Part shown: piece by piece, positions 6,328-24,899 of the stretch
Layout: each line of letters starts with the position of its first letter
How positions within the stretch are numbered: the first letter of the stretch is position 1
From: a virus
IMG/VR virus record: IMGVR_UViG_3300048606_000091
DNA: 27,771 nt
Reading direction: 5' to 3' (one strand)
The notes under the pieces: model-generated
Told to the model about the DNA's origin: nothing
Database searches by the model: none
What the model saw: the letters and a program-made list of their open reading frames with translations, nothing else
Program-made: the position numbers and the translations under genes

Positions 6328-6639
6328 GCTTGAATGCTGTCCTAGGGTATTTGGGGAAATTTCAGAAAAAATTTGTGAGCCGGTTTTTGGCTATAGAGGT
6401 ATTTCGGATTGAGCTGTGACGAAGGGGGTGGGTATGGGGAGGCGGAGATGCGAGAGGGAAGGGTGCGAGGGATGCAGGCTCAGGAGGGAGGCACTAACGA
6501 GGGCGCGAGGATTGAGGCGCGGGAGAATTGTCACGAGGGAAACTGACAAATCAGAGAAATCGAGATCGCTGGGTGGGGTGGCTATCCAGCGGGTGGGGGA
6601 GACGAATAGCCATTTGCACTAGTCGAATTTCGGTTTGGT

Positions 6640-7480
6640 AACACAGAAAGGCACAGCAATAGCAGCAAAGAAAGGGGGCCCCATAGCACAGGAAAGCAAG
6701 CGAGCAAGGAGAGAAAGGGGGCCCCATTCACACAGGGGCACAACGCACACACGCAATGAATGAATGCGTGAATGAATACACATGAATGAATGACACACAA
6801 TGAATACACAAATAGAAATGACAATACATAAATACAATTGTGAATTAATAAATAAAAATAAATTAATTATTATATTTATTTAATAACATACATAACATCA
6901 TTGATTATATTTAATAAATATATTTTATTTAATTATTATATCAATCACATATACATGTGCATACCATACACATAGGTACATACCATACATACAATGCACA
7001 TACACACACATACCATGCATACACATAGGTACATGGGTAGTACATACACACACGTATATACACATACCATATACCAATGCACATACAGTACATATACATA
7101 GGTACATACCATACACATAACATACAATAGGGTACACATACATATAGGTACATACCATACAATAGGGTACACATACACATGCATGTATATAGGTACCATA
7201 TACATACCCCCATGTGAGGGGGGGGTAGCAGAAGGGGGGTACCACACAGGGGCAGGCACACACAGAAGGGGGGCCTGTGTGCCCACGTGCAGGGGGCGCA
7301 CAGAGAGGGGCTACACAGGGAAGGGGGTGCAGGGACAGGCCCCACACAGGGCACACAGGGGCCCGCATACAGGGGGCCCTGCACAGAGGGGGGCCTGTGA
7401 GAGGGGGGTCCAGGGAAGGGGCCCTGCAGGGGGGCACACAGAAGGGCCCCCTCCGTGAGAAGGGGGCCCTGAGGGAAGAG
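6640..7480. repeat. Non-coding low-complexity region: AT-rich core, CATA/TACA tandem units and (A)GGGGGCC/CACA repeats
   Basis: Nearly pure AT at ~6830-6940; degenerate CATAGGTACATACCATAC units at ~6945-7210; repeated AGGGGG(C/T) tracts at ~7215-7480; strong strand skew. Confidence 0.85.
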
Positions 7481-7483
7481 GGG

Positions 7484-7894
7484 TCAAGCGGACATGCGGT
7501 CCGGGGCACCGCCCATCACGTTGGAATCGTCGGGCAGAGACACCGCGTCACCGGCACACGCGGCGACGGCCGACTCGGGGGCATAGATGGCCGACACAGA
7601 ATCACCGTCATCGCCCCGATAACCCTGGGCGAACAGACACTCGGCGACACCGTTGGCCGGGCCGTCATCGGGGGCAGGCACCCGGTACTCGGGGCCGCCA
7701 TATGAGGCCAGAGAAACGGCCTGAGCGGCAGCGTGCGGGGCCTCCTGGTGGGAGGTGACCGACAGGGCCACGAAGACCACGAATGCGGCCACGGCCAGCA
7801 CAGCGGGGATCAGGCGAGAGGCCAGGGAGATGGGCAGGACTGGGCCCACCACGCGCGGGACGATCGGCAGGTTCGGGATTTCGGTGTTCGTCAT
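7484..7894 (-). CDS. Membrane-anchored hypothetical protein (MTNT cassette)
   Basis: 136 aa, one TM helix, extracytoplasmic part with CL..QGY.G. Confidence 0.8.
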   Translation of the reverse strand: MTNTEIPNLPIVPRVVGPVLPISLASRLIPAVLAVAAFVVFVALSVTSHQEAPHAAAQAVSLASYGGPEYRVPAPDDGPANGVAECLFAQGYRGDDGDSVSAIYAPESAVAACAGDAVSLPDDSNVMGGAPDRMSA

Positions 7895-7988: not shown

Positions 7989-8159
7989 TCAGTCGCGCTG
8001 GCCCAGAGCGAACAGACGGCGGTCGATTTCGACCAGCGCCCGGCGGGAAATCCCGGATGCGGCCGGATCGGTGGAGTGGCGCACGTGGGCCTTCAGCTGG
8101 CCCTCCAGGGCAAACAGCTGGTTGACGTTGAGGCTGGCGAGAGATGCGATGTTCGTCAT
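7989..8159 (-). CDS. Small hypothetical protein (MTNI cassette)
   Basis: Hand-translated 56 aa MTNIASLASLNVNQLFALEG...ALGQRD; has its own promoter and terminator; below the ORF-track cutoff. Confidence 0.8.
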   Translation of the reverse strand: MTNIASLASLNVNQLFALEGQLKAHVRHSTDPAASGISRRALVEIDRRLFALGQRD

Positions 8160-8264: not shown

Positions 8265-8504
8265 TCAGGCAGGGAACCGACGTCCCACCAAATGCCAAGC
8301 CTCGGAACGGGCACCGGGGCCGGCACCCGGATCGGCCAGGATGACCTCGGTGTAGATCTTTCCATTGCCCAACGGGGTCGAGTGAACGGTGATCTTTGCC
8401 GCCTTGCGAGTCCGCGCGAAATTCACCGCGTCCAGCACATCGACATAGGTGTCGGTCGACAACGCGCCGTAGAAAGTGGGGGCCTCAGTGGTGGTGTTCG
8501 TCAT
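8265..8504 (-). CDS. Hypothetical protein (MTNT cassette)
   Basis: 79 aa, flanked by cassette promoter and terminator. Confidence 0.8.
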   Translation of the reverse strand: MTNTTTEAPTFYGALSTDTYVDVLDAVNFARTRKAAKITVHSTPLGNGKIYTEVILADPGAGPGARSEAWHLVGRRFPA

Positions 8505-9850: not shown

Positions 9851-10225
9851 TCAACGAAGATCCGCGTACTGGCCGACCGAGAGATCATCAAAGGTCGGGC
9901 GATCCACGAACACAGAGCCGGTTTCACCCTCGGAGGTCCGCAGGTCCACCCGGAACGCCTCGGGCACATCCTCGTCGCCATAGATCGGGGTCGAGATGTC
10001 GATGTCACCATCAGCATCGGTGTCGATGTCGATCGATGAGACCTCCACGATTTCCGTGTGGGCCGGCACGACGACCAGCGCGTCCACCCGACCGGAGGTC
10101 ACGGCGTTGGCGGAGCTGATGACCATGAAAGCGATCAAGCCCACGATGGCCGCCACGGTGGCGACCAGCAGAGCGGCAACGGGGTCGATGGAGGAGAGGC
10201 GGCGGGCAATTCCGGTGTTCGTCAT
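9851..10225 (-). CDS. Membrane-anchored hypothetical protein (MTNT cassette)
   Basis: 124 aa; N-terminal TM helix then an acidic beta-rich domain. Confidence 0.8.
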   Translation of the reverse strand: MTNTGIARRLSSIDPVAALLVATVAAIVGLIAFMVISSANAVTSGRVDALVVVPAHTEIVEVSSIDIDTDADGDIDISTPIYGDEDVPEAFRVDLRTSEGETGSVFVDRPTFDDLSVGQYADLR

Positions 10226-11692: not shown

Positions 11693-12010
11693 TTACCAGG
11701 TCAGCGCGTCCGTGTAGGAGCCGAGTTCGATGATCTCGCCCTGGGGCATCTCGAAGCCCTGCGAGCCGGCGTCCAGCACCTCGCCGAGCGTGCCATTCCA
11801 ATACGGGCCACGCGGCGCGGTCGCGCTGATCGTCACCGATCGCTCGTCCCGCACCCAGGTGGTCAGCGACCGAACGAAGGCCAGGAACTCCTGCCAGCTC
11901 TCATACTCGGCCCACTCGTAAGAGTCGCCCTCGACCTGCTCGATCTTGCGCTCGATGGCAGCCTGCACAGCTTTGACAACGTCCTGGGCGGTGAATTCGG
12001 TGTTCGTCAT
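11693..12010 (-). CDS. Hypothetical acidic protein (MTNT cassette)
   Basis: 105 aa. Confidence 0.8.
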   Translation of the reverse strand: MTNTEFTAQDVVKAVQAAIERKIEQVEGDSYEWAEYESWQEFLAFVRSLTTWVRDERSVTISATAPRGPYWNGTLGEVLDAGSQGFEMPQGEIIELGSYTDALTW

Positions 12011-14469: not shown

Positions 14470-15531
14470 CTACCCTCGCACACCGGTCCACACAATCTCG
14501 GTCAGCTCACGCTGGTATCGATCCTCGATGCGGTGGAACCAGTCACCCGGGATACCCGCCGGGTCATACGCGCCCGCGAGAGCACCGGTGATGGCAGCCG
14601 TCGAATCACTGTCGCCACGCGTCCAGGCAGCCGCTCGGATCGAGTCCACGAAGCCGAGGTCGGCATCGAACACACCCACGGCCATGGCCACAGCCTCGCG
14701 AGCCCGCCACCCCTGGCCCGAGTAGTCCGCCGGGTCGAAAGTGAACAGCTCTCGCGTCTTCAAGGCAGCCGTCAGATCGCCGGCAGCCATCGCAATCCAC
14801 CGGACGTGCTCGATGCCCTCGCGAACGTAGTCTTCCGGAGATTCGTGGTGCTTGCTCTGGTCATCGCTCTCGACTACCAGCTTCCACAAGATCGAGCCCA
14901 GCCCGATCGAGTCGTACGCCATGTCCTCGTGTGCATCCGCCCACTCGGACAGGAAGCCGACAGCTCCACCGGGAGCCACGTTGCCTCGGGCGATCTCTCG
15001 GGTCAGAGAGGCCAGAGCGGCAGCCGCGAACGCATTCTCCGCCGGACCGTGCGTGAGCACAGCCTGCATCGCTGCCACGGTGAACAGCTGCTCGTCCGAG
15101 ACCTTGTCCGACAGACCAACCCACGCCGCGCGCATGACCGAACCGCAGCCAGCCGAGGTGTGCGAGGTCGCCTGCTGCCAGCCACCCAGTCCCATCCGAG
15201 AAAGCTTGGCCAGCGCGGACATGCAGGTGTTGCCCGGAGCACGAGCCCAGCCAGTGGCCTGCTCGTCATACCAGGTGTCGAACTCGACGGCCAGCTCCTG
15301 GCGGAGCAGTCCGAGGTGCTCACCGTCCCACGCCTCGATCGCCTTCATGACGTAGATGGACATCTGGGTGTCATCGGTCACCCGGAACCGCGCCGGGGCG
15401 ACCGGACCCTTGCCGTCCATGGGCGGGTGCGCGAACTCGATGGGATCACCATATGCATCTCCGCACGCCAGACCCCACACGGCTCCGGCGAATCGGTTCT
15501 GGTCAATCTGCACGTTCTCTGTGTTCGTCAT
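14470..15531 (-). CDS. ADP-ribosylglycohydrolase (DraG/ARH family) (MTNT cassette)
   Basis: GLACGDAYG, TDDTQM, GxGSVMR, TH and GDSDSTAAITGAL motifs. Confidence 0.93.
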   Translation of the reverse strand: MTNTENVQIDQNRFAGAVWGLACGDAYGDPIEFAHPPMDGKGPVAPARFRVTDDTQMSIYVMKAIEAWDGEHLGLLRQELAVEFDTWYDEQATGWARAPGNTCMSALAKLSRMGLGGWQQATSHTSAGCGSVMRAAWVGLSDKVSDEQLFTVAAMQAVLTHGPAENAFAAAALASLTREIARGNVAPGGAVGFLSEWADAHEDMAYDSIGLGSILWKLVVESDDQSKHHESPEDYVREGIEHVRWIAMAAGDLTAALKTRELFTFDPADYSGQGWRAREAVAMAVGVFDADLGFVDSIRAAAWTRGDSDSTAAITGALAGAYDPAGIPGDWFHRIEDRYQRELTEIVWTGVRG

Positions 15532-15621: not shown

Positions 15622-16083
15622 TCAGAGCTTGATCAGGAACCCTACGCCGTGGTTCACACCGCCGCAGCTGCAGACGCACAGCGGGCCGGTGGCGAACTCG
15701 CAGCGGCTGTCGCAGTGGTGGTGCTCGGCGTCCGAGACGGTGCCTACCAGCTGCTTGGCCTTGACCTTGACGGTCTTGCCGTGGTTGCTGCAGTGCAGCT
15801 TGAACGGGTGGTCCTTGACCGCGTGGGTCTTGCAGCCCTTGACATAGCACTTCGCGGAGAAGCGACCGTACGCCTTGGGCTGGTGGTCGATGACCTTAGG
15901 AGCCTCAACCGTGATCTCGGTGGTCGCGGGGACCTCAACCACCATCGCACCGAAGTACTTGTTGTGGAAGCAGTCCTTCACGTCCTTGACGGTGGGGTGG
16001 TACTTCGGAGCCTGGAAGGTGGAGCAGTTGCCGCACTTGATCTGGAGGGGGGACTCGGTGGCTGCCTGCGCTGTGTTCGTCAT
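15622..16083 (-). CDS. Cys/His-rich multi-zinc-finger protein (MTNT cassette)
   Basis: 153 aa with CxxC...H...C, CxxxxC..H, CxxH and CDxRCxxAxGxxCxCxCGGxNHG. Confidence 0.8.
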   Translation of the reverse strand: MTNTAQAATESPLQIKCGNCSTFQAPKYHPTVKDVKDCFHNKYFGAMVVEVPATTEITVEAPKVIDHQPKAYGRFSAKCYVKGCKTHAVKDHPFKLHCSNHGKTVKVKAKQLVGTVSDAEHHHCDSRCEFATGPLCVCSCGGVNHGVGFLIKL

Positions 16084-16327: not shown

Positions 16328-16659
16328 CGCTTCCCGCTCTTGACCCACTCGCAGGAGCCGTGCAGCTCCACCACCTTGTCGGAGGGCTTGACGGTGAACA
16401 CACCCGGGCCCTGCAAGTTGCCGTTCTGCGAGATCGTCCCGAACGAGCCGCCCGAGAAGTCCTTGTCGACCTCGAAGTAGCAGCTCTCGCGGGCCAGGTT
16501 CGCTGTCTTGTAGGTGCCTGGCGGGATGTCATCGCCCACCACGTACATGCCAGCCGCGAAGCTCACCGGTGGTGCGGGGACGACCTCGGCCGCGTGCGCG
16601 AACGGTGCGTTCAGCACGACCAGCAGGGCGGAGCCCAGGATCAGGATGAAAAGCCTCAT
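16324..16659 (-). CDS. Secreted protein
   Basis: Signal peptide ending AHA, then GMYVVGDDIPPGTYKT..CY..GSCEW, a pattern common in actinobacterial exported proteins; GGAAGG SD. Confidence 0.8.
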   Translation of the reverse strand: MRLFILILGSALLVVLNAPFAHAAEVVPAPPVSFAAGMYVVGDDIPPGTYKTANLARESCYFEVDKDFSGGSFGTISQNGNLQGPGVFTVKPSDKVVELHGSCEWVKSGKR

Positions 16660-16805
16660 GATATTGTGAACCTTCCAGTGAATCGGGGATTGGTTTTGCT
16701 GGATATGTATGGAGAACCCCAGAGCCTCTCGCGACGAGTCTCTGGGGTTCTCTGTGTTCGTCGTAGTAGTAATGTAGCACAGGTCAGCAAGGCAAGCAAG
16801 TAGTT

Positions 16806-18245: not shown

Positions 18246-18392
18246 TCACTCGCCTCGCAGCGAACGACGGATGGCAGCCTGGCGGCCATCACGGCGGGTG
18301 GCCTCGCGGCGCACCTTACCCGAGGGGATGGGCTGGGCCGCGTTGCTGGCGCGGAGCCCCTGGATGGCCTGAACCTTCGTGGTGTTCGTCAT
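18246..18392 (-). CDS. 48-aa basic peptide (MTNT cassette)
   Basis: MTNTTKVQAIQGLRASNAAQPIPSGKVRREATRRDGRQAAIRRSLRGE; promoter TTGCTA-17-TAGTCT at 18399-18427. Confidence 0.75.
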   Translation of the reverse strand: MTNTTKVQAIQGLRASNAAQPIPSGKVRREATRRDGRQAAIRRSLRGE

Positions 18393-18534: not shown

Positions 18535-18613
18535 TGGTAGGGCGGGTGGGGATTGAACCCACGTGCACCGGCTACCCTTTCAACATGTTATAAGCATGAG
18601 GGGATACCGCCCC
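18535..18613 (-). tRNA. Atypical tRNA-like gene, anticodon UAU (Ile?), no conventional D arm
   Basis: Acceptor GGGGCGG/CCGCCCT-A-CCA, T arm GTGGG-TTCAATC-CCCAC, anticodon hairpin CATG-CTTATAA-CATG; only 8 nt between acceptor and anticodon stems. Confidence 0.7.
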
Positions 18614-18622
18614 GTGCTTGCG

Positions 18623-18697
18623 TAGACCGAGTGGGATTCGAACCCACAACCTCAGAGTTTTGAACCCTGCTCCTCTGCCAGATTGGGATACCGGTCC
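18623..18697 (-). tRNA. trnL: tRNA-Leu(CAA), short variable loop
   Basis: Anticodon arm CAGGG-TTCAAAA-CTCTG, T arm GTGGG-TTCGAAT-CCCAC. Confidence 0.9.
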
Positions 18698-18794
18698 AAG
18701 ACCACGCCGCCTCGGGGGTACGTCATGGCTTCGAATCTCACGCTCACACACGACGTCAGCGAATGTCACGGCCTCCGCTCGTGCCCCAAGCGCG

Positions 18795-18871
18795 TGGTAC
18801 CAGATGCAGGAATCGAACCTACCTGATCTTCTTCATCAGAGAAGCGTCCACGACCAGTGGACTTATCTGGC
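18795..18871 (-). tRNA. trnI: tRNA-Ile(GAU), CCA encoded
   Basis: Acceptor GCCAGAT/ATCTGGT-A-CCA, anticodon arm CTTCT-CTGATGA-AGAAG; unusual A8 and G37. Confidence 0.82.
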
Positions 18872-18907
18872 TTGAAGAGCTAGCCCCGCCGAGCTGGGCT
18901 AGCTCAG

Positions 18908-18990
18908 TACCGGTCACAGGAATCGAACCTGCACTCCCGAAGGAACGAGAACCTAAATCTCGCGCGTCTGCCTAGTTCCGCCACACCGGC
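18908..18990 (-). tRNA. trnL: tRNA-Leu(UAG)
   Basis: Anticodon arm CGAGA-TTTAGGT-TCTCG, variable arm TTCC-TTCG-GGAG, T loop TTCGATT. Confidence 0.93.
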
Positions 18991-19007
18991 ATGTTTAGTT
19001 GTAAGGA

Positions 19008-19060
19008 GGACAGCGGCTCAACGCGGAGTTTATGACGAACACCTTGCGGAGCCGCCGTCC
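19008..19060 (-). ncRNA. Candidate small antisense RNA complementary to the shared 5' tag of the MTNT genes
   Basis: GGACGGCGGCTC/GAGCCGCTGTCC 12-bp stem (G-U only on the minus strand) plus CGC/GCG, apical region GGTGTTCGTCATAAA = reverse complement of TATGACGAACACC; lies between two minus-strand tRNAs. Confidence 0.75.
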
Positions 19061-19062
19061 AG

Positions 19063-19136
19063 TCGGGATAAGAGGATTCGAACCTCTGGCCCCTCGCTCC
19101 CAAAGCGAGTGCTCTGCCAAGCTGAGCTACACCCCG
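19063..19136 (-). tRNA. trnP: tRNA-Pro(UGG)
   Basis: CGGGGTG/TATCCCG-A acceptor, anticodon arm CTCGC-TTTGGGA-GCGAG. Confidence 0.95.
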
Positions 19137-19157
19137 TTATTTAATTGCTGTGCCCCC

Positions 19158-19169
19158 GATGTTATACCC
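19158..19169 (-). promoter_or_regulatory. Putative second-class promoter -10 (GGGTATAACATC) for the right tRNA/sRNA cluster
   Basis: An identical 12-mer lies at 1260-1271 upstream of the left tRNA cluster; both sit in hairpins. Confidence 0.45.
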
Positions 19170-19193
19170 ACCGGGGGCCCGTCTGCAACGCGG

Positions 19194-19502
19194 TTACGCC
19201 TCCCGCGCCCGAGCCGGCTCGAATCCAAGATCTCCGAGCACCCGCCCGGAGGCGTGATAGGCGAGCGTCTCGATCAACTCCTTGGTCAGCGCGCCCAGCT
19301 CGTCCACCGGGAGCCGGAACAGTACGGTCGTCTCCCGTTCCTCTCGGGACCACTGCACGGCGCCACCCTTGGTGATCGGGTACTGGCTCACAACCCGGGT
19401 GATCTCGACCTCGTCGATGCGCGCATCCGAGGCGTTGGCCTCGCCCCGCCAGAAGTCTCGGACGCGGTAGAGGGTGGTTACATGTACCTGTGTGTTCGTC
19501 AT
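19194..19502 (-). CDS. Hypothetical protein (MTNT cassette)
   Basis: 102 aa from MTNTQVHV; promoter TTGACG-TGCTCGCCTTGCCAGGG-TATGAT at 19509-19537. Confidence 0.8.
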   Translation of the reverse strand: MTNTQVHVTTLYRVRDFWRGEANASDARIDEVEITRVVSQYPITKGGAVQWSREERETTVLFRLPVDELGALTKELIETLAYHASGRVLGDLGFEPARAREA

Positions 19503-23350: not shown

Positions 23351-23538
23351 GCGGTGCTCCTTACCCGGGGACGGATGACCTCCAGGGTGGTGGCCAGATA
23401 GGTCTTGGTGGTGCCGTCCGTCTCCAGGATGACGCTGGCGCTCGGCGGGCGAAGACCGTCGTGCAGATCGACCAGCGCGATCACCCGACCCAGCAGCCCA
23501 CACCGGGTGAGCACTCGATCATGCAGCCGAGGGAGCAT
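23347..23538 (-). CDS. Small SH3/KOW-like protein
   Basis: 63 aa; RLHDRV..CGLLGRVIAL..LEVI. Confidence 0.7.
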   Translation of the reverse strand: MLPRLHDRVLTRCGLLGRVIALVDLHDGLRPPSASVILETDGTTKTYLATTLEVIRPRVRSTA

Positions 23539-24899
23539 CAGTACGCACCCATCCAGCGGGTGGGGCGGGCAGCTCTCTCCTGGCAGACCTTGCAGCGACG
23601 ACGCGGTTCCGTCGTGACCACACCCATGTCGCCACAGACCTCGCAGGGGAGCCCGCTCTGCAAGTCCGAGATCTGACGCTGCAGATTGGTGATTCGATCA
23701 GCGATCTGACCGGTGGCTGCATCCAGCTCGGCTACCGCGTCCACCAGACCCGTGTCGCTTGCCCTGCACGCCGCGCAGTAATGCCGGGGACCAGCCACGA
23801 AGCGCCCGCACGTCGAGCACCGAGACCGGCTGAACCTCTTCCGTGGCTTGGCATACGACACCAGCATCGCCGCGCTCAAGAGCAGCAGCGATGCCCCCAG
23901 CAGCGAGATCTGCACATCCTGACGACCGAAGCCTCCCGCCACCAGGCTCGCGGCAAGCGCCGTTACGGCCGTGCGCCACAGCACCACCGGGCCAACCCAC
24001 TTGAGCAGCCGGCCGAACATCCTGAACGGGAACACCAGCACCTTGGCGGACAGCACCACGAGCGTGCGCAGCGCCTGCATCCAAGACTTGCCCACCTCCC
24101 AGACCAGCGCGATCAACCCATTGATCCCCGCGAGCAGCAAGTCACGAACGCGTTCTGACCTGGTCAGAGGGGGTGGTGGCGGTGGTCCAGGCTCGGGCAG
24201 GTGCCAGGCGAACGGAGCCACGCCCAGCGGATCCCAGCGCGGTGGGCGAGAGCGGTCCGCCAGCAGCAACAGCTCCTGAGCCTCCCGTTCAGCCTGGGCT
24301 TCCTCCTCCAACTGAGCCGCGTACATAGCAGCCAGCCTCTTGTTCTCCGCGCGCAACTTGTGCTTGAGTGGGCCCGCATCGCCGGTTCCCTGGGCCTTAT
24401 GCTGATCTTCCATCAAGCCAGCGACAACCTTCAGCTGCGCCTCAATACCCGGAGTGAGCTGAACCTTCCCGTTCTCGATTCGCACACTAGAGCAGCAGCG
24501 GCACTCCGCGAGCCGCACCCGCTCAGTCGCAGACTTACCGGGGACAGAAACAACGAAGCCGCCGGCCGTCCGCGCGACGAACATCTGCACCGTGCCGAAG
24601 GAGGATCCGTAGATCGTGAAATGTGGGCTCAACCCATTGGTACCACCCCGGTTCAGCGCCCACGGCACGCACCAGCCCGTCTCACCCACACCCATGTCCA
24701 TGATCTCACGACCACGGTGACGGGGACGCTTCGTCCTCTGCGGGTTACGCGCCGGAGGACCCTCCGCGTCCAGGGCATCAACCTCAGCACAGGTGATTTT
24801 GTGATCGACCTCAGTGGTGACCGGCGGGCACTTAGGCTCATACATCCAGCTCGCTCGGACGTTGCCCGGGTAGGACTTGCCGAAGTTAGTGTTCGTCAT
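23538..24899 (-). CDS. Large membrane protein with coiled-coil and zinc-ribbon segments (MTNT start)
   Basis: 453 aa; TM segments, poly-Pro linker, CxxC pairs; ATGACGAACAC 6 nt after TAGGAT. Confidence 0.75.
   Translation of the reverse strand: MTNTNFGKSYPGNVRASWMYEPKCPPVTTEVDHKITCAEVDALDAEGPPARNPQRTKRPRHRGREIMDMGVGETGWCVPWALNRGGTNGLSPHFTIYGSSFGTVQMFVARTAGGFVVSVPGKSATERVRLAECRCCSSVRIENGKVQLTPGIEAQLKVVAGLMEDQHKAQGTGDAGPLKHKLRAENKRLAAMYAAQLEEEAQAEREAQELLLLADRSRPPRWDPLGVAPFAWHLPEPGPPPPPPLTRSERVRDLLLAGINGLIALVWEVGKSWMQALRTLVVLSAKVLVFPFRMFGRLLKWVGPVVLWRTAVTALAASLVAGGFGRQDVQISLLGASLLLLSAAMLVSYAKPRKRFSRSRCSTCGRFVAGPRHYCAACRASDTGLVDAVAELDAATGQIADRITNLQRQISDLQSGLPCEVCGDMGVVTTEPRRRCKVCQERAARPTRWMGAY

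Follow-up and report, generated by a model that had tools for sequence, protein, structure and literature searches.

Closest Described Systems

We take the CI RNA of P4, alongside the C4 RNA of P1/P7, to be close to the system described here, which consists of a hairpin at positions 19008..19060 (minus strand) of IMG/VR virus record IMGVR_UViG_3300048606_000091 and a short sequence, the tag, with which 20 genes in the same 27,771-nt stretch of DNA (the window, i.e., the whole stretch that was analyzed) begin and whose reverse complement is carried in the apical region of the hairpin. The reading that we favor, and consider likely, is that the hairpin is a small trans-acting antisense RNA cut from a tRNA precursor that blocks ribosome loading on all tagged, predicted leaderless mRNAs. 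Judged by sequence comparison, it is a conserved candidate riboregulator that is apparently unpublished and for which the comparative support is unusually good.

C4 RNA is a phage RNA of ~70–80 nt that is released from a same-strand transcript by the tRNA-processing machinery and whose loops mask initiation in trans on the phage's own mRNAs (PMC5320573; here and below, statements on cited papers refer to excerpts of them). The same properties are predicted for the window RNA. C4 differs in having three stem-loops, two of whose loops act on a leadered ribosome-binding site in one operon and serve immunity (PMC5320573), whereas the window RNA has one hairpin and one loop, 20–36 targets, and would cover the start codon and codons 2–4 of predicted leaderless mRNAs. 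The hairpin had no Rfam match; for the C4 models there was no match at E ≤ 1 in the window or at E ≤ 5 in loci L045, L229, and L007.

The start-associated sequences (SAS) of cluster K mycobacteriophages are likewise short asymmetric repeats that stand at many gene starts in one orientation, with a single inverted copy off any gene start in four K1 phages (Pope et al. 2011, PMC3203893; PMC11373665). In contrast to the tag, the SAS is a 13-bp repeat located 3–9 nt upstream of the start and contains a Shine-Dalgarno core, and the two sequences are unrelated; the tag is the coding start itself (+1 to +11) without a leader. The split in orientation, 21 versus 1 for the tag, is alike. The excerpts of both papers give the function of SAS as unknown and propose no RNA from the inverted copy.

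Three further systems share single features with the window. In Escherichia coli, 3'ETS-leuZ is a functional RNA that arises from maturation of a polycistronic tRNA precursor, but it sponges the small RNAs RyhB and RybB (PMC8383071), whereas the window RNA is predicted to pair with mRNAs. The multi-target, loop-pairing small RNAs 6C and B11 of actinobacteria differ in being host encoded, with C-rich loops and no shared coding-start barcode (PMC6486639, PMC10470900); the window has no Rfam 6C match. In the PeSL cassettes of T4-type phages, small orphan genes are separated by strong promoters of host type and by terminators, both repeated, but the abstract describes neither a shared coding start nor an antisense hairpin (PMC2839356). 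The survey of Microbacterium phages gives repeats for a number of clusters, with none for Zeta1847 in the excerpts (PMC7302621). No published description of a tag/anti-tag system was found in the literature covered, which was mostly outside subscription journals and without supplements.

A Hairpin between tRNA-Pro and tRNA-Leu Mirrors the Tag

The hairpin and its surroundings comprise the following features; G001 is the closest relative of the window that we found.

19008..19060, minus strand: hairpin (from folding) with a 12-bp outer stem, two short inner helices, and a 7-nt apical loop, CGUCAUA
19031..19043, minus strand: anti-tag, or mirror, segment GGUGUUCGUCAUA, with +1 to +12 of the mRNAs as its complement; an unpaired A follows
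19062..19136, minus strand: tRNA-Pro(UGG) (ARAGORN), CCA not encoded, discriminator at 19063
18907..18990, minus strand: tRNA-Leu(UAG) (ARAGORN), downstream neighbor of the hairpin; counterpart in G001 is tRNA-Leu(CAG)
18991..19062, minus strand: predicted released spacer RNA of 72 nt, composed of CU, the hairpin, and a 17-nt tail, with ends deduced from tRNA processing

The original prediction, made from the letters of the window, had placed a hairpin between the two tRNAs, and its position and sequence hold: it is a single unbranched hairpin, set off by 2 nt from the discriminator of tRNA-Pro and by 17 nt from tRNA-Leu. The 53-nt piece folds at -29.8 kcal/mol (z -4.6, with 1 of 200 shuffles as stable), and the 57-nt piece with flanks at -31.0 kcal/mol (z -6.1, with 0 of 200 shuffles as stable). 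On the minus strand, the sequence at 19043-19031 is GGTGTTCGTCATA, which is TATGACGAACACC in exact reverse complement. The apical region had been described as the complement of the tag, and the 12-base mirror is indeed there; only about 7 of its 12 bases (CGUCAUA) are predicted to be unpaired, however, and the others lie in a weak upper stem, whose opening would require 4.6 kcal/mol. The hairpin is not among the 21 terminator-like sites of the window, its tail being UCCUUACAAC followed by tRNAs, without a U-run.

A G-U pair on the minus strand, which the original prediction had offered as agreeing with the flanking tRNAs, is present, but folding energy does not settle the strand: the plus strand folds at -28.4 kcal/mol with AUGAC in the loop, and in G001 the opposite strand of the hairpin folds better. 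We assign the hairpin to the minus strand because of the flanking tRNAs, a promoter-like site upstream that is shared by the window and G001, and a U-tailed terminator behind the copy in Microbacterium phage Zeta1847. No promoter-like site that would feed the hairpin from the opposite strand was found on inspection of the window and G001.

Two resemblances were considered and dropped. For mimicry of an initiator-tRNA anticodon (CAU in a 7-nt loop), the predicted fold puts the bases out of register, and a YUNR U-turn in the loop is doubtful, because in three of four copies both of its U bases are mostly paired.

Twenty Promoter-Fused Genes Begin with the Tag

Allowing up to one mismatch, ATGACGAACAC occurs 22 times in the window, where 0.43 copies are expected and the maximum in 100 shuffles was 2. 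Twenty-one copies are on the minus strand and one, at 19032, is on the plus strand; this sole copy in the opposite orientation, noted as such in the original prediction, has no promoter. The minus-strand copies comprise 17 exact matches, three one-base variants that retain ATG, and one with ACG (16764); the expectation for an exact 12-mer in the window is 0.0007 per strand. All 21 have a TANNNT box 6–7 nt upstream, as do all 20 tagged genes, 19 of which also have a TTG -35 element 17 nt above the -10 box, and a Shine-Dalgarno-like 4-mer precedes 1 of the 20. When promoter-fused ATG starts were sought without any condition on the downstream bases, 20 were found and 19 of them carry the tag.

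The 20 genes, listed below, all lie on the minus strand, begin with ATG, have lengths of 38–453 codons, and are unrelated, as had been claimed: BLASTP among the 20 proteins gave zero pairs at E<0.01. One protein has a Pfam match above cut-off, to ADP-ribosylglycohydrolase. The window contains 21 terminator-like sites compared with 8.4 in shuffles, and many tagged genes end in terminators. From the promoter spacing, we infer that the tagged mRNAs are leaderless; the promoter type and the small orphan genes suggest that they are early.

7484..7894, minus strand: tagged gene, 136 aa, no family
7989..8159, minus strand: tagged gene, 56 aa, C11>T variant, G-U pairable
8265..8504, minus strand: tagged gene, 79 aa
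8781..8897, minus strand: tagged gene, 38 aa
9060..9335, minus strand: tagged gene, 91 aa
9428..9757, minus strand: tagged gene, 109 aa, A8>G variant, G-U pairable
9851..10225, minus strand: tagged gene, 124 aa
10379..10666, minus strand: tagged gene, 95 aa
10774..11118, minus strand: tagged gene, 114 aa
11234..11578, minus strand: tagged gene, 114 aa, C11>T variant, weak PadR-like match below the Pfam cut-off, homolog in G001
11693..12010, minus strand: tagged gene, 105 aa
12124..12399, minus strand: tagged gene, 91 aa
12739..12999, minus strand: tagged gene, 86 aa
13091..13486, minus strand: tagged gene, 131 aa
13654..14388, minus strand: tagged gene, 244 aa, no match in Pfam or PHROG, homolog in G001 (59% over 187 aa)
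14470..15531, minus strand: tagged gene, 353 aa, ADP-ribosylglycohydrolase (PF03747, E 9e-40), homolog in G001 tagged
15622..16083, minus strand: tagged gene, 153 aa, phrog_6842, homolog in G001
18246..18392, minus strand: tagged gene, 48 aa, phrog_11957, directly after the tRNA cluster; homolog at the same place in G001
19194..19502, minus strand: tagged gene, 102 aa, directly before the tRNA-cluster promoter
23538..24899, minus strand: tagged gene, 453 aa, by pattern with a -10 box only
16754..16764, minus strand: tag with ACG for ATG, promoter intact, in frame with a 111-aa gene starting at 16659

At the last of these loci, the frame from the ACG tag (16764-16324, minus strand) runs for 146 codons into the 111-aa gene, which has its own ATG (16659), as if a leaderless start had turned into a 105-nt leader.

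Most Tag Deviations in Hairpin-Bearing Phages Keep the Predicted Pairing

When the loop was scanned for targets on the minus strand of the window, the 20 best duplex sites were exactly the 20 tagged starts, with energies of -22.3 to -17.6 kcal/mol; the next site had -16.3. After the cost of opening both the RNA and the target, the net energy has a median of -13.2 and a range of -7.4 to -16.1 kcal/mol.

The bases at which tags deviate were compared between phages with and without the hairpin, using -10-fused starts within two mismatches of the tag. In the window, G001, G002, and Zeta1847, which have the hairpin, 88 starts contain 13 deviations, 12 of which are tolerated as G-U pairs and 1 of which is mismatched, whereas in six hairpin-less phages 43 starts contain 33 deviations, of which 4 would be tolerated and 29 are mismatched (Fisher p 5e-7, or 5e-4 with repeats collapsed), a test that treats related starts as independent and scores the hairpin-less phages against a loop that they lack. 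The tolerated changes are all transitions, whereas tags in the control group drift mostly by transversion. This wobble tolerance points to RNA–RNA pairing with the phage's own messages. Covariation of loop and tag had been proposed as a check on the original prediction; here G-U tolerance is as stated, pairing is shorter where tags diverge at +10/+11, the core of the loop is invariant, and no matched change was found.

Codon use agrees with selection on bases. In G002, the tags use AAC in 18 of 18 cases compared with 8 of 52 Asn codons in gene bodies, and the promoter-defined starts of Zeta1847 use ACG in 11 of 11 compared with 10 of 98 Thr codons in gene bodies; because the tag codons are fixed against the codon use of the gene bodies, selection acts on bases and not on amino acids. 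Host preference was rejected as the whole explanation, since TANNNT-N6-ATGACNAAC gave 14 matches in five actinobacterial genomes, nine with ACC and five with ACG, so that the tag is not favored by hosts. Pairing with rRNA in the manner of a "downstream box" was also rejected, with at most 7 complementary bases at three loci with 16S rRNA. Taken from the sequences, the loop appears to be a conserved, accessible seed complementary to several unlinked mRNAs in a structure kept by compensatory change, and pairing of the RNA with the tagged 5' ends is supported.

If the RNA pairs with these 5' ends, it could in principle act mainly on others, shutting down early genes in a second phage that bears the same tag and superinfects or competes, or it could provide RNA-based immunity in lysogens. 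The tag is common to unrelated phages, several of them on one host genus (Zeta1847, Honk, and Cen1621); Zeta1847 has a serine integrase and no identified repressor (PMC7302621), and C4 RNA confers immunity by antisense (PMC5320573). We nevertheless consider this improbable as the main role. A weapon directed only against others should let the phage's own tags escape, and these are held pairable in 12 of 13 deviations. In Zeta1847 and G002, the hairpin comes after tag-led genes, lacks a convincing promoter to itself, and would be silent with the early promoters off, and Honk and Cen1621 have integrases but lack the hairpin. Silencing of competitors can also be a side benefit of an RNA that regulates its own phage.

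The Hairpin Recurs in Other Phages, Mostly on Non-Homologous Stems

Two patterns were run against viral contigs, one for promoter plus tag (102 stretches) and a further one (74 stretches), and 509 loci were scanned de novo. The first pattern yielded three tag-rich near-complete genomes, G001, G002, and G003, the last being Zeta1847, which is cultured. Exact 11-mers are split between the strands as 34 versus 2 in G001, 13 versus 1 in G002, and 11 versus 1 in Zeta1847, and each genome has one inverted copy at a hairpin tip; the second inverted copy in G001 lies elsewhere in an unconvincing fold. Defining tag-bearing records as those with at least three promoter-fused ATGACGA starts, we count 23 other than the window, of which 8 have similar loop hairpins: G001, G002, and Zeta1847; G060, G061, G062, and G063, added by the second pattern and the de novo scan; and G065, a weak copy added by inspection. 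Loss of the loop in relatives that keep the tag had been named as grounds for abandoning the prediction; the loop is retained in these eight records from at least three lineages.

G001 (186 kb) has gene order and five tagged proteins in common with the window and contains about 36 tagged promoters. Microbacterium phage Magritte has a capsid protein that is 58% identical to the one in G001, whose contig is filed in a genome bin labeled Candidatus Nanopelagicales. As in the window, the hairpin stands directly behind tRNA-Pro(UGG). A block of 16 loop bases, which includes the mirror segment, is identical between the two, whereas 4 of the 9 outer stem pairs have changed on both sides and 0 are broken; between G060 and G061, 2 of 8 pairs show changes on both sides, each of these counts coming from a single pair of genomes.

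In G002, Zeta1847, G060–G063, and G065, the loop sits on non-homologous stems that are intergenic and on the strand of most or all tags. Two of the nine copies are tRNA embedded and most of the others follow genes; in G002 and Zeta1847, the hairpin comes after the stop codon of a tag-led unit and before a second hairpin, which is U-tailed in Zeta1847. The z-scores of the eight other hairpins range from -1.4 to -6.6, two having been folded with a terminator. None of the nine hairpins departs from the loop core GUUCGUCAU, and in eight of them the next base is A. In the G060–G065 group, the loops pair over 9–10 nt, and divergence of the tags sets in after +9 or +10. A covariance model of the nine hairpins gave no consensus pairs, as the stems do not align, and was not used.

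The lineages of the hairpin-bearing records, of which we count at least three, share almost no proteins. Zeta1847 open reading frames (ORFs) have no proteins in common with the window or 80 kb of G002, share a polymerase-region ORF and lysin A with G001, and share lysin A alone with the G060–G065 loci. The three primases examined, from G061, G062, and G065, form one family, and that of G062 is 62–70% identical to the primases of Shrew, Huwbert, and Triscuit.

These distributions bear on the idea that the RNA works through a protein, as guide of an RNA-guided DNA silencer at the transcription start, as a template decoy for the polymerase, or, from the opposite strand, as a sponge for a tag-binding protein. 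The loop does equal the template strand at +1 to +12, and the opposite strand also folds with AUGAC in its loop. This idea is very unlikely in our view, given that Zeta1847 shares so few ORFs with the other carriers, that its annotation contains no Cas7/RAMP-like gene, and that no promoter-like site feeds the opposite strand. Moreover, the vrRNAs of VIPR are, in the excerpts available, alternating GGY/NN repeats, and this periodicity is absent from the hairpin.

In L106 (Zeta1847) and L107 (Honk), the annotations place the GenBank starts of most tagged Zeta1847 genes 15–48 nt upstream of the tag and inside the promoter (gene 70: 45050 versus tag at 45095); these starts are probably mis-called.

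Tags Also Occur without the Hairpin

Several observations weigh against the antisense reading. In fifteen of the 23 other tag-bearing records, no hairpin was seen. Among them are five complete genomes, for which the 9-mer search covered the full length, and three near-complete ones (G017, G044, and G067), where a full-length search was made only with the 10-mer that ends in A; the rest are fragments. The five complete tagged genomes, Honk (10 tags), Cen1621, G008, G050, and G052, have no inverted copy in a loop, which removes the need of the tag for the hairpin that the original prediction had implied. No case was found in which loop and tag had changed together to a new sequence, and no protein common to the hairpin-bearing lineages was seen. 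Folds are weak in G063 (z -1.4) and G065 (z -0.9 without the terminator), and the copies in G062, G063, and G065 pair over 9–10 nt only. A single RNA would also have to titrate the output of 20–36 promoters, and the dependence among starts in the wobble test counts here as well.

Controls were examined in the other direction. The 15-base loop motif occurs at 74 loci (66 viral and 8 metagenome), and promoter-fused tags were present at those of G001 and G002 only; one tagless locus folds equally well (-32.3), with the motif paired. The eight metagenome loci comprise G001 again and seven tagless loci, the genome scan returned 92 stretches that are G001's contig and mostly single chromosomal genes, and among 80 loci with ADP-ribosylglycohydrolase relatives only G001 is tag rich. 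Magritte (whole genome) has neither a tagged start nor a mirror loop; none was seen in Triscuit and Huwbert (~33 of 68 kb each), and Shrew (~33 of 68 kb) has mixed starts and no mirror loop that we saw. No uniform tag was found in the first 32 kb of Trina and Sixama or the right arms of Caron, IAmGroot, and Percival. The variant tags ATGA(C/G)CAACAC gave no tag-rich contig, with at most two matches per locus among the 80 loci listed of about 150. In the controls examined, the hairpin was not found without tags.

Some candidate mirrors were rejected. Four loci found in viral contigs with a stem-plus-loop pattern are tagless and were read as chance; apparent mirrors in G050 and G052 lie inside an open frame (Phe-Val-Ile codons), and TTCGTCAT after terminators in Honk and Zeta1847 are mere terminator tails. 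Nine viral contigs (L394, L412, L413, L415, L428, L432, L442, L443, and L521) have 12–22 promoter-fused starts whose first bases are A/C rich but mixed, without a uniform tag, and lend themselves to comparison. At Streptomyces loci (L128, L131, L146, L173, and others), two chromosomal gene families (~187 aa and 280–320 aa) start with promoter-fused ATGACGAACAC and are possible host off-targets.

A motif is repeated between the -35 and -10 elements in each lineage, TTGCTCGCCTTGC-like in the window and palindromic in Zeta1847, Honk, G050, and G052 (loci L106, L107, L110, and L111); palindromes thus occur in the promoters of several hairpin-less phages and of Zeta1847 too. These lineage-specific motifs suggest a second, protein-based layer of control.

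Because hairpin-less phages have tags too, the tag probably arose earlier than the RNA and for a different reason, either serving initiation or spreading as a promoter-start cassette. One might go further and regard the tag as nothing but a cassette spread by recombination, as in PeSL, or a DNA operator, with the inverted copy a relic or a further protein site. The promoter spacers repeated within each phage and the many terminators fit such a cassette, as do the tags that lack a hairpin, and cassette spread likely explains the origin of the tag. As an account of the inverted copy we consider it distinctly unlikely: that copy is never accompanied by promoter remains, it sits at a hairpin tip in nine records of at least three lineages, its sequence is kept while the stem changes compensatorily, and wobble-specific tolerance is not expected of a DNA site.

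A Proposed Brake on Early Translation

Under the antisense reading, host RNA polymerase with its primary sigma factor would fire the tagged promoters (20 in the window to ~36 in G001) together with the tRNA promoter soon after infection. Trimming of the 3' end after the CCA-less tRNA-Pro, together with RNase P cleavage before tRNA-Leu, would free an RNA of ~72 nt, a length that we take from established tRNA biology. Given its position between the tRNAs, RNase P is predicted to act at the 3' end of the spacer RNA and not at its 5' end. The stem would start 2 nt from the 5' end of the spacer RNA, which should make it stable, and because of the tRNA-embedded form the RNA could, once excised, act in trans only. 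Its open loop (CGUCAU) would nucleate on the 5' AUGACG, the weak upper stem would open, and a duplex of 11–12 bp would cover codons 1–4, ending at the first base of the leaderless message. The spacer RNA would then outlast the mRNAs, accumulate, and titrate them, giving an early protein pulse from constant promoter output, that is, a delayed feed-forward brake; because the host polymerase would make the RNA and its targets together, the delay would come from the greater lifetime of the RNA.

Leaderless initiation is inhibited when the start codon lies in structure (PMC9031893, Table 1), and on leadered mRNAs pairing within five codons has an inhibitory effect (PMC8383071). The opposite outcome would be that the RNA pairs with the same 5' ends but, as a protective cap or a reversible parking partner, shields them from 5' decay or helps loading and so raises output. 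All of the pairing evidence fits this equally, a duplex of 11–12 bp is short for cleavage by RNase III, and an anti-Shine-Dalgarno-like CCUCCU stands at the foot of the stem in the window and G001. For Prochlorococcus under phage infection, protection from RNase E by antisense is described (PMC3113571). We hold it to be unlikely, for the duplex covers AUG and three more codons, where structure inhibits leaderless initiation, CCUCCU is present in only two of nine copies, and Honk with its ten tags lacks such an RNA, which is therefore not needed for expression. Between shut-off and stabilization, which the original prediction had left as alternatives, we favor shut-off by inference.

CCUCCU is found at 19004-19009 in the window and at L045:9428-9433, that is, in both tRNA-embedded copies, and not in the other seven of the nine.

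The shut-off of dozens of strong host-type early promoters by lytic phages is usually put down to proteins, and one ~70-nt RNA addressing every message would, if the antisense reading is true, be a very compact alternative. More generally, and tentatively, actinobacterial phages may contain a barcode/anti-barcode circuit in which a barcode of 9–12 bases marks up to ~36 leaderless early genes and one hairpin RNA, which in the window would be carried inside a tRNA precursor, silences them all, the phage's own and those of unrelated competitors that bear the same barcode. If true, this would be the first small-RNA control of bacterial leaderless initiation found in the literature, and the same design may explain the SAS of cluster K. 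Leaderless mRNAs are common in actinobacteria, with one third of mapped starts in M. avium (PMC3774663), and small-RNA control of them is listed as unknown in a 2022 review (PMC9031893). Such an RNA would provide a knock-down module for actinobacteria that needs no chaperone, and it would suggest, for the start-associated repeats of other phages, a function that can be tested. The model is directly testable in a cultured contrast pair, Zeta1847 with tags and hairpin and its relative Honk with tags only.

Setting of the Locus and Further Observations

The window has a G+C content of 61% and is part of a large tailed phage, whose host is probably actinobacterial; its best protein matches among cultured phages are to Gordonia, Mycobacterium, and Rhodococcus phages. 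ARAGORN identified 12 tRNAs on the minus strand in two clusters, and a 13th call, on the plus strand, overlaps a gene and has no Rfam support. In addition to the two tRNAs that flank the hairpin, its cluster includes the following features.

19159..19188, minus strand: promoter-like site TTGCAG-N18-TAACAT upstream of the tRNA cluster, no tag after it
18535..18871, minus strand: rest of the tRNA cluster
18795-18871, minus strand: tRNA-Ile(GAU)
18622-18697, minus strand: tRNA-Leu(CAA)
~18535-18613, minus strand: tRNA-like gene not called by ARAGORN, anticodon TAT, with CCA encoded and a long extra arm; weak Rfam tmRNA match (20.7 bits, below cut-off)

A near-identical promoter-like site precedes the tRNA cluster in G001. 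In the window, an inverted repeat (19142-19175, minus strand) encloses the -10 box of the tRNA-cluster promoter and may end the upstream tagged transcript or regulate the tRNA promoter. Positions 6400-7480 form ~1 kb without a credible gene, with a purine-rich run, a very A+T-rich core (6820-6940), and TACA-type and G-rich repeats, and are possibly a replication origin or genome end.

In cluster K, the inverted SAS of Adephagia (L634:13659-13716, ~58,660-58,715) and Anaya (L635:13847-13905) caps a long hairpin as its apical loop (z -7.3 and -2.8, respectively), located in the gap between genes 92 and 93, where late transcription appears to start (PMC11373665). Right-arm pieces of TM4 and Pixie have no inverted-SAS hairpin. 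The K1 hairpin region was found in 144 records; among four divergent K relatives, the loop is kept in Mdavu, is a different, C-rich one in Amohnition and TClif, and is absent in ShedlockHolmes. The parallel with the window hairpin is suggestive by analogy, not established.

Two very long ORFs were seen in G001, one encoding a tape measure protein of 3206 aa (L517:10297-19914) and the other a head-morphogenesis protein of 3122 aa with a nudix-like stretch (L519:936-10301).

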